From NCBI GenBank assembly GCA_965218195.1, contig OZ244593.1:2853908-2917907 (forward strand): a stretch of DNA of 64,000 nt. Reading direction: 5' to 3'. Of this stretch, positions 7,851-41,609 are shown piece after piece. The stretch's first letter is position 1, and every line of letters starts with the position of its first letter. Made by a program: the position numbers and the translations under genes. The stretch is from Chloroflexota bacterium (GTDB taxonomy: Bacteria; Chloroflexota; UBA11872; VXNJ01). The notes below the pieces were generated by a model. That model ran no database searches, was not told the DNA's origin, and saw only the letters and a program-made list of their open reading frames with translations.

Positions 7851-8190
7851 ATGAAACCAGAGCACCACGAACTGTTGATCCGCGAGCCGCTGATTGACGA
7901 CGCCAAACCCATCGCGGCCATACAGGTCGCGGGATGGCAATCGGCGTTTCGGGGCGTCGCCTCCAATGACTACCTCGACGCACTGGACGCGGCGGCGGAG
8001 GCCGCCGGATGGAGAATCGGCATCGCCCTCCATCCCAACGGCAGCGATGCTTCGTCGCCGAGCTTGAGTCCGAGATCGTCGGATTCGTCACCATCTTCCC
8101 GTCACGCGACGAGAACCTCGATCATGATTACGTCGTCGAGATAGGCGCGATATACGTCAGCCCCGAGCATTGGAGGCGTGGCGTGGGACA
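7851..8190 (+). pseudogene. GNAT acetyltransferase, frameshifted (~8040) and truncated at att junction
   Basis: IRE..DA..IAAIQVAGWQ then FVAE..EIVGF..EIGAIYVSPEHWRRGVG (motif A), after which GNAT similarity stops. Confidence 0.8.
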
Positions 8191-8237
8191 TCGCTGCCAG
8201 TAACTGCTACTCCCTCAGCCGTACGGTCGCCGTCTGA
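8168..8237 (+). other. Hybrid att junction (GNAT half | P' half)
   Basis: 8189-8237 aligns without gaps to the last 49 nt of both LSR genes (CATCGCTGCsAGT..GCTAC..CTC.GCCG...TCGCCG.CTGA). Confidence 0.8.
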
Positions 8238-8469
8238 GCGAGCCCCTGCTGACTTCTCGCCGCGTCCGGCTCCGAGGGCGAGCGCCTTCTCCCCCAGTTC
8301 CCCTAGCTAGATCCTTCACGGACGTAACTCCATCAGTCCGTGGAGTCGAGCAACGCGATCGCTCCCAGTGTTCTCCGCCAGTGCCCTCTTTGCGAATTAT
8401 GTCGAGCTGACAGACGACCGAAGCTCCGCGGTAAGGCCGGGTCCCATAGGCCCCAGGCGGGGCTCTTTC

Positions 8470-8935
8470 TAATGACTGTTTTCTATATAACGAAGCGTCG
8501 CTCCGCGTCCGGAGTCTCACTGCCGCCGACGCCCTCGCTGCCGCCCGGTTCGCACCTGTCGCGCCACGGGGCGAGTTATACAGCCTGGGCGAACATGGGT
8601 TGCTTGGCGACGACTCTGGCCACACAGGCGCAACGGGGCGCTTGGTCGCGAGTAGATAGAGCTTGGAATCTTGCTTCTACCGCTCGAATCGCACGCCGCT
8701 CGCGCGCCTCTCCCCTACGGCCGAATGGCGCTCGATTGGCCTCGCTCCCGCCTACCAACCCCTACCAATTCATTTTTGCCAGCAAAGGTAGTGTTTGCTA
8801 GCCGTTGCTGGGCCCCGGGGCGGCGCTTTTCGCTACCTGGACGGCTTCTCGCTGCCTCGTCAATCCCCTGCGCGACCTCAAGGCTCGCTTACAGCGTCAC
8901 CCCGCTTATATCGATACGCCGCCCGGACAAGCCGG
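8470..8935. repeat. Conserved non-coding block, copy 2
   Basis: CCTGTCGCGCCAC 8555-8567, 27-mer 8773-8799, minus-strand TATAAG 8905-8910. Confidence 0.85.
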
Positions 8936-9020
8936 CCACTCAAAGCACCGGATGGACCAACGCCGTCCGCTACCTTGACCAAGCCACCTTACTAGTCTAG
9001 CTTCACCGTAAGGAGAGCCC

Positions 9021-9263
9021 GTGATCGTCAAAATTACCTCCAAACGTCAGGTCACCTTCCCCGCCAAAGTCCTCGACGCACTCGGCGTCAAGCCCGGCGA
9101 TCATCTCGAAATCGAGAAGGGTCCCCACGGCTTCATCATCCGCCCCCGCCGCATCAACCCATCCCTGCTCGCGCCGCTGCGCGGCAAGCTACAGCCCACC
9201 CACACTCCCTTCGACCTCCATGCCTTCCGCGAGCAGCCCCATGACCCGGCGCTTCGGGATTGA
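9021..9263 (+). CDS. AbrB/MazE-family antitoxin
   Basis: KITSKRQVTFPAKVLDALGVKPGD swapped-hairpin motif; AAGGAG RBS. Confidence 0.88.
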   Translation: MIVKITSKRQVTFPAKVLDALGVKPGDHLEIEKGPHGFIIRPRRINPSLLAPLRGKLQPTHTPFDLHAFREQPHDPALRD

Positions 9264-38806: not shown

Positions 38807-38834
38807 TTCACACATAGGGCTTGATATATCTGCA
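38807..38834 (+). other. dif-like 11-6-11 site, copy 2
   Basis: TTCACACATAG-GGCTTG-ATATATCTGCA; marks the start of homology with the 798 copy. Confidence 0.5.
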
Positions 38835-38881
38835 AACCAGAGCAATCGTCATGCGGACCTTCTCCCGCAAAGGAGTTCACC

Positions 38882-39823
38882 GTGTCAACCGCTCAGGCCC
38901 TGCCGACCGTCTTCTCTGGCTCCAGCACCGGCTGGGAAGGCTCCCTCTATGCCTTCCTCGCCGAGAAGCAGCGCCGCTCCGGCTCCAACCGCACCCCGGA
39001 CTCCTACTACCGCACCCTCCGCCACTTCTTCGGCTCCCTCCAGAAGTCGCCCGATCAGGTCTCGCCTCAGGACGTCTTCAGCTTCGCCCATGGCATCGGC
39101 CTCTCTGGGCGTGAACCATCCCCCGTAACCGTCGGCGCCCGTCTCTCCTGCATCTCTTCCTTCTTCAAGTTCCTCATCCGCATGGATGTCCTCAATGCCA
39201 ACCCCTGTGACCGGGTGGATCGTCCCAAGCCTCGCCCCAGCTCCCCTAGCGGCCTCTCCGCTATCCAAGTGCAGCAACTCCTCCAGGTCATCCCCGATAC
39301 CGTCAAGGGCAGGCGCGACCTCGCCATCGTTCTCACTCTAGTCCTAACCGGCAGACGCCGATCCGAGGTCATCAACCTCACAGCCGGCGACATCTCCTTC
39401 GACGACTCTGCCGTGTTCTACCGCCACGTCGGCAAGGGCGGTGTGCGCGGTCGCCGTGAGCTTCCCCGTCCGGCCCTTGCCGCCATCGTTAGGTCACTCG
39501 CCGATGTCGGCAAGGACCTCTCCTCCATGCAGCCCTCCGAGTCGCTCTGGCAGGCCGGCGCAGGACCCACCGGCGTATCCAGCGCCACCTTCTACAACCG
39601 CTTCCGCACCTACCTTCGAAAGGCCGGTCTCCCTCTCTCCGGTCTCCATGTCCTACGCCACTCCGCCGCCAAGCTCCGCCGTGACCTCGGCGAGTCCGTA
39701 GAGTCCGTAAGCCAGTTCCTAGATCACAGCTCGCTCGCCGTCACGACCACCTACCTCCGCAGACTCGAGGGGCAGCGTGATACCGCCTGGCAGGGCGTCG
39801 CCAGTGTTATCGGCGTGAGCTAG
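38882..39823 (+). CDS. Tyrosine recombinase (XerC/XerD-like), paralog 2
   Basis: Same R-K-HxxR-H-Y residues; colinear with 872-1813. Confidence 0.93.
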   Translation: MSTAQALPTVFSGSSTGWEGSLYAFLAEKQRRSGSNRTPDSYYRTLRHFFGSLQKSPDQVSPQDVFSFAHGIGLSGREPSPVTVGARLSCISSFFKFLIRMDVLNANPCDRVDRPKPRPSSPSGLSAIQVQQLLQVIPDTVKGRRDLAIVLTLVLTGRRRSEVINLTAGDISFDDSAVFYRHVGKGGVRGRRELPRPALAAIVRSLADVGKDLSSMQPSESLWQAGAGPTGVSSATFYNRFRTYLRKAGLPLSGLHVLRHSAAKLRRDLGESVESVSQFLDHSSLAVTTTYLRRLEGQRDTAWQGVASVIGVS

Positions 39824-39998
39824 CTCGCCCCGCCTACGGCCATCCTTCGCCTCACAGGTCTAGTATCTGTCCCGGTGGCGCGGCAGCTCATACCCCTTCC
39901 ACAATGATGCGTGCATCACTGGCGCCCCGCCTTGACCTTCCCGCGCCTCCAGAGCGTTCATACATCCCGCTCCAACTCCCCTTCCGCTGGAGGTCGCC

Positions 39999-41609
39999 AT
40001 GCCCAACTCCATACTCTCCATCGCCACCTACGCCCGCGTCTCCTCCGATGAACAGCGTGACCGCCATACCGTCCGCAATCAACGCGCCGCCCTGTCCCGC
40101 CGTCTGTCTTCCGAGCCGGGTGTTGTCGTCTTCAAGCATTACGAGGATGACGGCGTCTCGGGCACCATCCCGCTCGAAGACCGGCCGGCTGGCGGCCCGC
40201 TTGTCCGTGATGCTCGCGCCGGTCGTTTCTCCCAGATCTGGGTAGTTCGTGCCGATCGCTTGGGTCGCGACGCCTTCGAGCTCCTCCGCATCTGGAGGGT
40301 GTTTGAGTCGATCGGGGTCGCGCTCCGCGCCACCGACGAGAACATCGACGATCCCTTCTACTTCGATATCCACGCCGTCATAGCCGCCAACGAGCGCCGC
40401 AAGTTCCTCGAACGTTCCGCCGAGGGCATGAACCGCGCCGCCAAAGAAGGCCGCTATACCGGCGGCATCGTCCCTCTCGGCTATACGGTCTCAGGGGATC
40501 GAGGTTTCCGCCGCCTCGTCCCGGACGACTCTCTCATGTGGGAAAACCTCTCCGCCGCCGACATCGTCAGGCGCATCTATGACCATCTCGCCCATGACGG
40601 CTGGAGCTGTAAGCGCATCGCAACCGAGTTCAACGACCTCGGCATACCCACCGCCTATCGCCGCGCCGGCCGCGGCGTCAGAGGCAAGCGCACCCGGGAA
40701 ACCTGGCACTCCGGCCATGTCCGCAACCTCGTCGTCAATCCCGTCTACAAGGGCGAACTCCAGTACGGTCGCAGGTCTTCCAAGCCCAACGGCCGCGAGG
40801 TCATCTCCGCTCCCGTGACTGCCCTCGTCTCCGAAGATACCTGGAACGCCGCTATCGCCACCCTCAAGCGCAACCGCATAGCGGCCAACAACTCCCGCCA
40901 CACCTACCTCCTCCGCTCGCTCATCCGCTGCGCCGTCTGCGGCCTCGCCTTCTGCGGTACCTGGGCCAGAAATAAGCCCCGCTACAGGTGCAACGGCGCC
41001 ATGGTCGAGCGCGGCCCCTTCCCCGGTAAGTGCATCGGCGCTTCCATCAAGGGTGATCTCCTTGAAACCACCGTCTGGTCCGATATCTGCCGCTTCCTCT
41101 CCGATCCAGGCCCCCTCATCGACGAACTCCTCGCTGAGTCCGACGACGCGCAGACGCGCGCCGCGGCCGAGGCTGAACGCAGCACTCTTATCGCAGCACG
41201 CGACGCCGCACGGGATCGCCGCTTTCGCGCCCTCGACATCTACACCCGTGGCAAGATCCCCGAGAGTGACTTCGACGCCATTACCGCCGAGGTGGATCGG
41301 GAGCTCAACAGGCTGGCTGAGCGGCTCGCCGCGCTCGAACCTCCGAAGGACGATCCGAGCGACGCCGTTGCTTCCGAGGACCTGCTATCCGAGATCCGAA
41401 ACCGGCTGGACGGCGGACTAACCCAGGCCGAGCGGCAGGAAATCGTTCAGCTGCTCGTGCGCCGGATCACCGTCCACACGACCCTGCCCAAGCAGGGCCG
41501 CAAACAGGTCCGCATCGTTATCGATTACCGGTTTCCTGGTGCAGCGACGACTGGCACGGTCATCGCTGCGAGTTCCAGCTACAATCTCCGCCGCGTTATC
41601 GCCGCCTGA
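39999..41609 (+). CDS. Large serine recombinase, paralog 2
   Basis: YARVSS, zinc ribbon; colinear with 1995-3602. Confidence 0.95.
   Translation: MPNSILSIATYARVSSDEQRDRHTVRNQRAALSRRLSSEPGVVVFKHYEDDGVSGTIPLEDRPAGGPLVRDARAGRFSQIWVVRADRLGRDAFELLRIWRVFESIGVALRATDENIDDPFYFDIHAVIAANERRKFLERSAEGMNRAAKEGRYTGGIVPLGYTVSGDRGFRRLVPDDSLMWENLSAADIVRRIYDHLAHDGWSCKRIATEFNDLGIPTAYRRAGRGVRGKRTRETWHSGHVRNLVVNPVYKGELQYGRRSSKPNGREVISAPVTALVSEDTWNAAIATLKRNRIAANNSRHTYLLRSLIRCAVCGLAFCGTWARNKPRYRCNGAMVERGPFPGKCIGASIKGDLLETTVWSDICRFLSDPGPLIDELLAESDDAQTRAAAEAERSTLIAARDAARDRRFRALDIYTRGKIPESDFDAITAEVDRELNRLAERLAALEPPKDDPSDAVASEDLLSEIRNRLDGGLTQAERQEIVQLLVRRITVHTTLPKQGRKQVRIVIDYRFPGAATTGTVIAASSSYNLRRVIAA
41540..41583 (+). 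other. Serine-integrase att junction (P of element B | P' of element D)
   Basis: TGCAG-N5-ACTGGCA-CGGT-CA-TCGC-TGCGAGT-N5-CTACA, centre CA 41561-41562. Confidence 0.8.

Follow-up and report, generated by a model that had tools for sequence, protein, structure and literature searches.

Recombinase Gene Pairs in the Window

The stretch analysed here (the window; 64,000 nt, positions 2,853,908 to 2,917,907 of contig OZ244593.1, assembly GCA_965218195.1) comes from a Chloroflexota bacterium whose genome, denoted G000, is assembled as one 3,591,897-bp contig (window = G000:C1:2853908-2917907; related genomes carry further G numbers and individual loci L numbers). It holds a 33,372-bp element (element 1, measured from one CA dinucleotide to the next) encoding a tyrosine recombinase (Yrec) and, directly downstream, a large serine recombinase (LSR). 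Two diverged copies of this gene pair are present in the window, as claimed in a sequence-only reading of the same DNA (Table 1). The pairs share 82.6% nucleotide identity across 2744 nt (blastn), and their products are 92% (Yrec) and 78% (LSR) identical (tblastn).

The LSR (535/536 a.a. in the window) displayed Resolvase (PF00239, E 1.6e-24), Recombinase (PF07508, E 4.6e-17), and Zn_ribbon_recom (PF13408, E 2.1e-9) domains, and the catalytic motif YxRVSS[DE]EQ, which includes the serine nucleophile, is kept in all 40 full-length copies. Its best NCBIfam match was XisF (NF041201, E 7e-32), at 111 bits and thus below the membership cut-off of 375. Scores against the CcrB and CcrC equivalog models were 53.6 and 61.3 bits (cut-offs 900) and, given the former value, the LSR is not a Ccr. 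The Yrec (313 a.a. in the window) fits the simple Xer/Cre-like type, with a SAM-like N-terminal domain (PF02899), a catalytic domain (Phage_integrase, PF00589), and no arm-binding domain. XerC, XerA, and XerD were its best NCBIfam models (93 and 90 bits against the XerC and XerD cut-offs of 335 and 330), and XerD (1a0p) and XerA its nearest solved structures. The Yrec is not the housekeeping XerC/XerD; a separate host Xer-like gene, 29% identical to it, lies at 601,979.

The Yrec gene precedes the LSR gene at all 45 LSR loci compared, with PF00589 as the partner family throughout, and the attachment (att) site overlaps the 3′ end of the LSR gene, which bears out the earlier claim of a family of integrative elements with linked recombinases. 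An open Yrec frame of at least 300 a.a. was found at 37/45 loci, 36 of which retain the HxLRH and Y motifs, and within G000 the Yrec is more conserved than the LSR (88–94% vs 76–78%). In the leftmost G000 pair (G000:C1:2798913-2803514), we noted a Yrec frameshift near residue 252 and an insertion of ~2 kb between Yrec and LSR; another piece of a Yrec gene is found at 2,782,845.

A Conserved 3.4-kb Core

In our alignments, the fixed part of each unit is a core of ~3.4 kb comprising a promoter region, Yrec, LSR, attP, a terminator-like hairpin, and a non-coding leader. Homology begins ~80 nt before the Yrec start codon at 43–44 of the 44 other loci and stops near +750 nt after the CA; two units of the related genome G002 (L033 and L034) are homologous to each other solely across 4802–8224 (96.4% identity). 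The sequence-only reading had proposed a longer fixed order, running from the P′ half-site and non-coding DNA through a toxin–antitoxin (TA) pair, cargo, and restriction–modification (RM) genes to Yrec, LSR, and the P half-site, of which just the core proved constant.

Downstream of the CA, the order is a 47-nt coding tail, a hairpin with a T run, an AT-rich box, and the conserved leader. Three such left-end modules occur in the window (CA at 3554, 8189, and 41561) and align over ~750–800 nt (pairwise blastn E 1e-29 to 1e-52), much more than chance would give. Each was previously described as followed by a TA pair, which we could confirm at two; the third (41561) is followed by an XRE-HTH gene on the minus strand and two open reading frames (ORFs) with no family matches. 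Among relatives, the co-occurrence of end modules with Yrec–LSR pairs, put forward earlier as a check, holds at 39/45 loci, where the LSR is followed by a P′ arm and the non-coding module; the LSR runs into a chromosomal half-site at four of the 45 and is followed by a broken arrangement at two.

The non-coding block showed no Rfam match in the window. RNAalifold energies were weak, and double changes were seen in 13/38 proposed pairs, a count in which most pairs are invariant and related copies inflate the double changes. It yielded no conserved protein and no conserved ORF longer than about 24 a.a. Sigma-70 consensus scans identified no promoter in either conserved region, and the promoter labels on the core refer to AT-rich boxes and position only.

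Two short features of the core deserve mention. In the most conserved island of the block (8595–8670 of the window, and the same place in other modules), an ATG opens a 23–28-a.a. frame in 27/38 scored copies, with the start MGCFAATWADTRATGR in many copies and longer frames in a minority; the short frame may encode a leader peptide, or the DNA may simply be conserved. In addition, the motif CCAG(AG)CAAAGGT occurs near both ends of the core, ~25 nt in from the left edge and 60–130 nt in from the right (window 38815–38860, 8770–8800, 4150–4180, and 42172–42202), and could be an operator, a recombinase site, or a chance match.

An Array of Elements Splitting comM

The G000 genome contains nine Yrec–LSR pairs, all on the forward strand and spanning 2,798,913 to 3,180,878, with none detected elsewhere by tblastn. 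They belong to a head-to-tail array evident directly in the assembly, which measures 407,526 bp from CA to CA (11.3% of the genome), consists of nine elements and one 4.6-kb remnant, and wholly contains the window. The unit sizes are 30,114, 28,389, 25,603, 4635 (the remnant, which lacks recombinases), 33,372 (element 1), 47,161, 54,145, 50,035, 74,487, and 59,585 bp.

The array is bounded by attL at 2,773,355 and attR at 3,180,881, which match the two halves of an intact comM/yifB gene on a contig of a congener (G003). After the ninth LSR, chromosomal DNA follows the CA directly, without a P′ arm, and the 9 kb to its right is collinear with contigs of all four congeners. On the G003 contig (C13), this right flank runs on across the junction into sequence matching G000 position 2,773,357, 407.5 kb leftward. 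Aligned side by side with the G003 attB, the G000 attL consists of a chromosomal half, CA, and a P′-like arm, and attR of a P arm, CA, and a chromosomal half. The intact G003 frame encodes 504 a.a. with ChlI, Mg_chelatase, and Mg_chelatase_C domains; in G000, comM exists solely as residues 1–353 and 347–503, one piece at each array end, with no other copy.

An empty site in a relative, suggested earlier as a check, is thus found, with the whole 407.5 kb missing from the intact comM. Its position differs from that first proposed: given the window lies wholly inside the array, the joint that the sequence-only reading named as the empty site would be an internal array junction rather than a chromosomal attB.

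Combined with the junctions described below, these observations make it probable that positions 8189–41562 are one unit of a head-to-tail integrative-element array that splits comM, that was founded and later altered by the LSR, and whose cores have recombined. Under this proposal, the LSR would cut at the CA and fuse the attP of a circular element with the attB in comM; subsequently, units would be added, deleted, or inverted by the LSR at attP-like array junctions and at pseudo-sites such as one in a GNAT acetyltransferase gene; and homologous recombination between the repeated cores would then shuffle cargo and homogenise cores within each genome.

We also considered whether the 3.4-kb core could itself be a mobile, transposon-like unit with two recombinases that inserted repeatedly into a pre-existing island, the cargo being the DNA left between insertions. 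The sharp edges on both sides of the core and the CCAG(AG)CAAAGGT motif near both edges are in keeping with this idea. However, the array ends split a single core at the CA (P′ at attL; Yrec, LSR, and P at attR), as is expected for circle integration through attP, and the entire 407.5 kb is missing from the contig with intact comM, which makes repeated core insertion highly improbable.

Junction Structure and the Crossover Enzyme

Eight P arm–CA–P′ arm junctions are present in G000, each at the 3′ end of an LSR gene and followed by the non-coding module. Their consensus consists of 7-nt inverted arms, ACTCGCA and TGCGAGT, lying 10 nt apart with the CA central, and the last 16 LSR codons and stop codon lie in the P′ half of the next unit. 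Every junction switches at the one CA dinucleotide, within a dyad-symmetric site overlapping the LSR 3′ end, and the base directly left of the CA varies among junctions (G, A, or T).

Two sets of sequences narrow the region of exchange. In G004, the P arm ends ...CCACCCG where its chromosomal counterpart ends ...GCAGGGG, and the P′ arm opens with TCGCTG, as against CGGATT in the remaining chromosomal arm. GCA is therefore all that attP and attB have in common at the switch point. In G000, the rearranged junction Jg (3,155,398, outside the window) takes its left half from a diverged site still present at 3,423,678 and its right half from a normal junction, and these parents share at most GGCA.

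Tyrosine recombinases require 6–8 nt of identical overlap, and serine recombinases exchange strands at a central dinucleotide. Exchange within 2–4 nt fits a serine recombinase rather than a tyrosine one, and the insertion inside an ORF together with an att site abutting the integrase gene also fits an LSR; for these reasons, we infer that the LSR makes all CA crossovers. The sites themselves, short imperfect dyads with apparent exchange at the central dinucleotide, look like LSR att sites.

At Jg, two left-end modules meet head to head. A related 8-kb segment ends in a solitary inverted module at Jh (3423678), 243 kb past the array, where the module is joined to a ~45-nt remnant encoding an LSR-tail-like peptide. 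In its own orientation, the variant site at Jh has TG rather than CA, and so would insert in the opposite orientation.

A division of labour could also be envisaged, in which the LSR founded the array at comM and the Xer-like Yrec adds, excises, and resolves units between identical attP-like junctions. The junction core also allows another reading, a 6-nt spacer flanked by 9-nt inverted arms, which is a typical layout for a simple tyrosine recombinase, and the Yrec is the partner at every locus, better conserved than the LSR and with its catalytic motifs kept in nearly all open copies (36/37). Furthermore, well-studied phage LSRs recombine attP with attB only and do not join two attP-like sites. 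On the other side, Jg joins attP-like sites with ≤4 nt in common at the switch point, the variable base left of the CA would mismatch within a tyrosine recombinase overlap region, and we are not aware of any site that is shared by recombinases of the tyrosine and serine families. We therefore regard this division as decidedly unlikely and retain the LSR as the enzyme that probably both founded and altered the array.

Distribution and Exchange between Genomes

Close relatives of the LSR (at least 74% identity) occur in 5/41 genomes of the order, namely G000, three congeners, and one member of a second genus, with 10, 11, 23, 4, and 13 LSR matches. A scan with two peptide patterns over one genome per species (185,579 species), which may miss more distant relatives, returned 36 loci, all in four Chloroflexota metagenome-assembled genome records, and IMG/VR held no LSR relative. 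Arrays in G002, G004, and G006 also terminate at this comM position. The G004 array spans ~230 kb; in G002, the 23 LSR matches lie 25–65 kb apart over 3.133–3.803 and 0.007–0.30 Mb, with the left flank now at 1.04 Mb, giving an array of ~0.97 Mb if continuous.

Beyond these genomes, two metagenome LSRs (46% and 44% identity) likewise end in a P arm, CA, and comM half-site. One of these contigs carries a 57% identical Yrec 2.5 kb upstream, and the other no Yrec within the 846 nt available. More distant LSRs of the same order (~30% identity) were dropped as candidate kin systems; the 323-a.a. gene upstream of them is unrelated to the Yrec.

In the LSR tree, 8/9 G000, 20/21 G002, and 3/3 G004 copies group by genome, and no two G000 units have whole cargo in common. 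Cargo is nonetheless shared between genomes: the unit G0_d and a G002 unit have 4.3 kb in common at 89%, and units of G002 and G001 share ~10 kb of core-adjoining cargo at 99.6–99.85% identity beside cores that are 86–90% identical. Near-identical cargo beside diverged cores indicates that cores and cargo have different histories and that at least part of a unit moved between species recently. For comparison, the G001 chromosomal flank is only 76% identical to that of G000.

The identity jumps fall near the Yrec start in one pair of units and, in two further pairs, within the non-coding block at ~+400 to +600. We had entertained a site-specific breakpoint for cargo exchange and rejected it, since the jumps occur at no single position; for the same reason, homologous recombination between the repeated cores is the simplest cause of both cargo shuffling and core homogenisation.

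Element 1 and Its Left Junction

The earlier delimitation of element 1 to the base stands, with boundaries at 8189 and 41561/2 that fit the unit structure. Its arms are as previously claimed, TGCCAGT (8195–8201) on the P′ side and the complementary ACTGGCA (41550–41556) on the P side, as is the mismatched arm (TGCGAGT) now adjoining ACTGGCA at J2. Both arms of element 1 carry complementary changes relative to the family consensus: the other eight P arms in G000 are ACTCGCA or ACTCACA, and the P′ side is TGCGAGT in 7/8 of the other P-to-P′ junctions. The TGCCAGT arm is not unique to element 1, as it also occurs at Jg.

The LSR of element 1 is the single G000 copy outside the G000 clade, and is sister to that of L027 in G001, a locus with an identical P arm; it also neighbours the G004 clade, whose P′ arms are similar. 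This shared P arm and the similarity of the P′ arms to those of the G004 clade argue that the two ends of element 1 belong together. As the P arm does not stand beside its own P′ arm, the crossover must have lain inside the att core rather than in another part of the homologous core. ACTGGCA recurs as a P arm only at L027, where it likewise precedes a TGCGAGT arm. A matched junction of the two element 1 arms was not found in G001, G002, G004, or G006, where the best match to the left-end module was 78% identical.

The right junction of element 1 is an ordinary boundary with the next unit. At its left junction (J1), the CA links the P′ arm to a frameshifted GNAT acetyltransferase gene truncated exactly there, which is 81% identical to a paralog up to 8187; no homolog of the 3′ part of this paralog was found anywhere in G000. 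From its sequence, J1 is best read as a pseudo-attB scar in GNAT. A former unit would have carried GNAT as cargo, and recombination of a pseudo-attB in that gene with the attP-like junction at the unit's right end would have deleted the intervening DNA, which would be a canonical attP × attB reaction acting intramolecularly. Insertion of the array into GNAT was considered and dropped, as the J1 left flank combined with the right flank of the array gave few GNAT-like C-terminal residues.

Short contigs from public reads were compared with positions 1–20000 of the window, a range that leaves the circle joint outside; none ran across J0 or J1 at the CA or skipped either of them, and the joints listed had short sides (21–61 nt) at positions away from both. 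This outcome speaks neither for nor against circles or excision.

Several observations weigh against an LSR-built array of which element 1 is a unit. J1 is not a P–P′ junction, and the GNAT 3′ half, against which the pseudo-attB reading could be checked, is absent from the genome. No circle, excision junction, or presence/absence polymorphism of element 1 was seen. Given that canonical LSRs join attP with attB only, accretion by the LSR would need a relaxed site choice. Five of the 45 LSRs are shorter than 500 a.a., and 8/45 Yrec frames are not open for 300 a.a., although some of the latter may reflect the start position chosen by the script. The G003 bin also has a contig (C4) ending in an attL-type junction, the comM part of which shows 87.5% identity with the intact gene; two populations (or two gene copies) may be present in the bin, and G003 may thus not be free of arrays, a point of which the attB inference is independent. 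Lastly, the clustering of LSRs by genome is also compatible with an old array, no longer mobile, whose copies were duplicated in place or underwent gene conversion.

This last point leads to the view that the array is a fossil, with an old entry into comM followed by unequal crossing-over, duplication, and gene conversion of units that are immobile now. Besides the grouping of LSR copies by genome and the failure to see a circle (in short contigs only), it draws on the dense insertion sequence (IS) copies (11/12 copies of a 1.2-kb IS are in the array), some broken recombinase genes, and a leftmost P′ arm common to G000 and a G003 contig. It does not sit well with cargo 99.6–99.85% identical between species whose chromosomal flanks differ by ~24%, with 40/45 LSRs being full length with the catalytic motif, with an arm pattern in element 1 that needs a crossover in the att core, or with the lack of whole-cargo sharing between G000 units. 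We consider a fossil array unlikely, and continue to favour an array founded and altered by the LSR.

Possible Role of the Tyrosine Recombinase

Our best guess, held with low confidence, is that the Yrec has an accessory role in resolution or rearrangement, acting in an Xer-like manner at a site within the core. A more ambitious proposal, which we regard as doubtful, makes it a working partner of the LSR that acts at the att core or the core-edge motif and excises, resolves, or swaps cargo between units, resulting in a self-extending gene library run by two unrelated recombinase families. If this partnership were true, the library would fill 11% of G000 and perhaps roughly one quarter of the genome of a relative, stocking the symbiont with defence and eukaryote-like genes. 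A predicted complex of LSR residues 160–536 with the Yrec scored 0.00, which speaks neither for nor against binding.

A Yrec paralog (68–71% identical) was noted outside the arrays, at L068 (G001:C2:1161000-1176000) and L069 (G006:C3:1137000-1151000), followed by a 311–324-a.a. gene with no known identity and a phage-type tyrosine integrase. The Xer-like enzyme thus also accompanies another kind of integrase, and these loci may represent a second element type using the same accessory enzyme.

Cargo and Neighbouring Features

Everything outside the core is variable cargo, amounting to 25–70 kb per unit, of which TA and RM genes are not a fixed part. Given that the TA pairs belong to different families and methylase homologs lie within 6 kb upstream of the recombinases at only 9/45 loci, both are better described as frequent cargo. 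For the two pairs in the window, the RM genes noted earlier are indeed present, as hsdRSM upstream of copy B and a type IIG system with Gabija upstream of copy A; their generalisation to each pair of the family does not hold at that 9/45. The latter genes (L071, G000:C1:2846000-2854700) comprise a complete Gabija pair (GajA E 1e-223, GajB E 1e-153) and a 1037-a.a. type IIG restriction-methylase; they lie immediately outside the window on its left, as cargo at the right end of the preceding unit. The features of the window are collected in Table 1.

Table 1. Coordinates of the features of element 1 and adjoining units (window positions).
Feature	Position	Strand	Basis
Tyrosine recombinase (Xer-like) copy A, right end of preceding element	872..1813	+	tblastn to copy B; PF00589 match
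LSR copy A; last 16 codons past crossover	1995..3602	+	tblastn to copy B; sequence
J0, intact attP-like junction: 7-nt inverted arms, CA at 3554-3555	3543..3566	.	sequence
4.6-kb remnant unit without recombinases: left-end module, MNT/HEPN, ankyrin genes, GNAT pseudogene	3554..8188	+	homology, Pfam
MNT/HEPN pair	4513-5218		Pfam
Ankyrin genes of remnant	5591-7777		
Frameshifted GNAT pseudogene cut at CA	7851-8188		homology to GNAT paralog stops at 8187
Element 1, 33,372 bp CA to CA (probable array unit)	8189..41562	+	junction sequences; complementary variant arms
Crossover CA and P′ half-site; LSR-tail-like peptide and stop codon	8189..8237	+	sequence
Conserved non-coding block: terminator-like hairpin with T run (8449-8464), AT-rich box (8480-8490), conserved leader	8238..8960	+	
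MazE/AbrB antitoxin and PIN toxin pair	9021..9639	+	Pfam
DUF2330, solute-binding protein, IS3 copies, vWA, ECF sigma factor, LRR/PD40, LRR/fn3, DUF4349/PKD, HTH regulator	9812..29716	.	Pfam
Type I RM genes hsdR, hsdS, hsdM	30383..37192	-	Pfam; PADLOC REase_I E 9e-155, MTase_I E 2e-248
Core start: AT-rich palindrome, conserved 5′ region, AAGGAG ribosome site	38800..38881	+	homology among 44 other loci
Tyrosine recombinase copy B	38882..39823	+	Pfam PF00589 E 7e-15; NCBIfam; solved-structure match
LSR copy B; codons beyond 41562 are P′ half of following unit	39999..41609	+	Pfam; sequence
J2: P arm of element 1 (ACTGGCA), CA 41561-41562, P′ arm of element 2 (TGCGAGT)	41550..41573	.	sequence
Left-end module of next element (47.2 kb, past window end)	41563..42330	+	alignment, blastn

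The 1.2-kb IS mentioned above is an IS3-family element (rve domains) with copies of at least 99% identity, two of which, identical, lie in the window (27638–28840 and 43440–44640); the copy outside the array is at 3,344,6xx. The window is also dense in eukaryote-like repeat proteins (5591–7777, 17654–24770, and 47431–63719) of the ankyrin, LRR+PD40, LRR+fn3, and RCC1 types, with further LRR genes showing 72-nt periodic repeats. No tRNA was found in the window.

The sequence-only reading had recognised no relaxase or capsid gene, and we similarly found no match in the array to PF03432, PF02534, PF01580, PF05065, or PF03354, the five families searched. PF03432 (relaxase), PF02534 (coupling protein), and PF03354 (large terminase) had no match in the G000 genome at all, and PF01580 (FtsK) matched only at 1.308 Mb, outside the array. 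The sole HK97-type capsid match (PF05065) in the genome lies far from it, at G000:C1:1396568-1397275.

One public run with short, near-identical pieces is labelled as a sponge metagenome, and a gene content of restriction, Gabija, TA, and ankyrin/LRR/RCC1/PD40/fn3 genes is regarded as typical of sponge symbionts. We tentatively suggest a sponge habitat for the host; if this is true, the array would be a way to gather and exchange defence and eukaryote-like genes without plasmids, phages, or conjugation genes.

Comparison with Known Systems

A search of full texts, which did not cover supplements, returned no description of a Yrec–LSR core or of Chloroflexota comM arrays. The sequence-only reading knew of no named class with a similar layout; closely analogous elements are nevertheless in print, in the form of the Dehalococcoides ssrA islands and the SCC elements (PMC3146451). 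The ssrA islands are the nearest described system, followed by SCC and, more loosely, the Tycheposons.

The ssrA islands (DsiB/DsiA) occur in the same phylum and, like the comM array, stand in tandem at one single-copy gene. They likewise encode a ~540-a.a. LSR whose 3′ end lies over the att site with the stop codon outside the island, carry a second recombinase in the module, show discordant module and cargo histories, and have no recognised transfer genes (PMC3146451). In contrast, their module comprises six genes, ParB-like and Mom-like ones among them, and pairs the LSR with a small serine recombinase; moreover, they target ssrA with a 20-bp direct repeat and lie within 100 kb (PMC3146451). 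The core described here has an Xer-like Yrec and two genes, the crossover is at a CA inside comM, and the arrays reach 408 kb or more.

SCCmec and other SCC elements (CcrA-CcrB), as outlined there, resemble the array in LSR-driven tandem accretion at one gene and in a two-recombinase operon, but both Ccr are serine recombinases and the rlmH 3′-end target stays intact, whereas here the partner is a Yrec and comM is split (PMC3146451). The sr1WO prophages of Wolbachia phage WO also have an LSR that inserts in a Mg-chelatase-like gene with halves on both sides; these are single insertions with structural genes, whereas the array has no match to capsid PF05065 or terminase PF03354 (PMC9203015). 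The Tycheposons of Prochlorococcus are variable, cargo-carrying islands with tandem junctions and an LSR in a minority, but they use a tyrosine integrase in 910/937 cases, target tRNAs, and often carry replication genes, whereas here both recombinase types occur per unit and the target is comM (10.1101/2020.12.28.424599).

XisF of the Anabaena fdxN element is likewise an LSR whose element interrupts a gene, although the LSR here falls below the XisF cut-off. The comM target, conserved across LSRs down to 44% identity, provides natural attP/attB pairs with a CA crossover and, thus, candidate integration tools. Staphylococci and Dehalococcoides are known to carry tandem LSR islands, which measure tens of kilobases and use two serine enzymes; here, a comparable arrangement has a tyrosine recombinase partner in all 45 units and arrays that are far larger.

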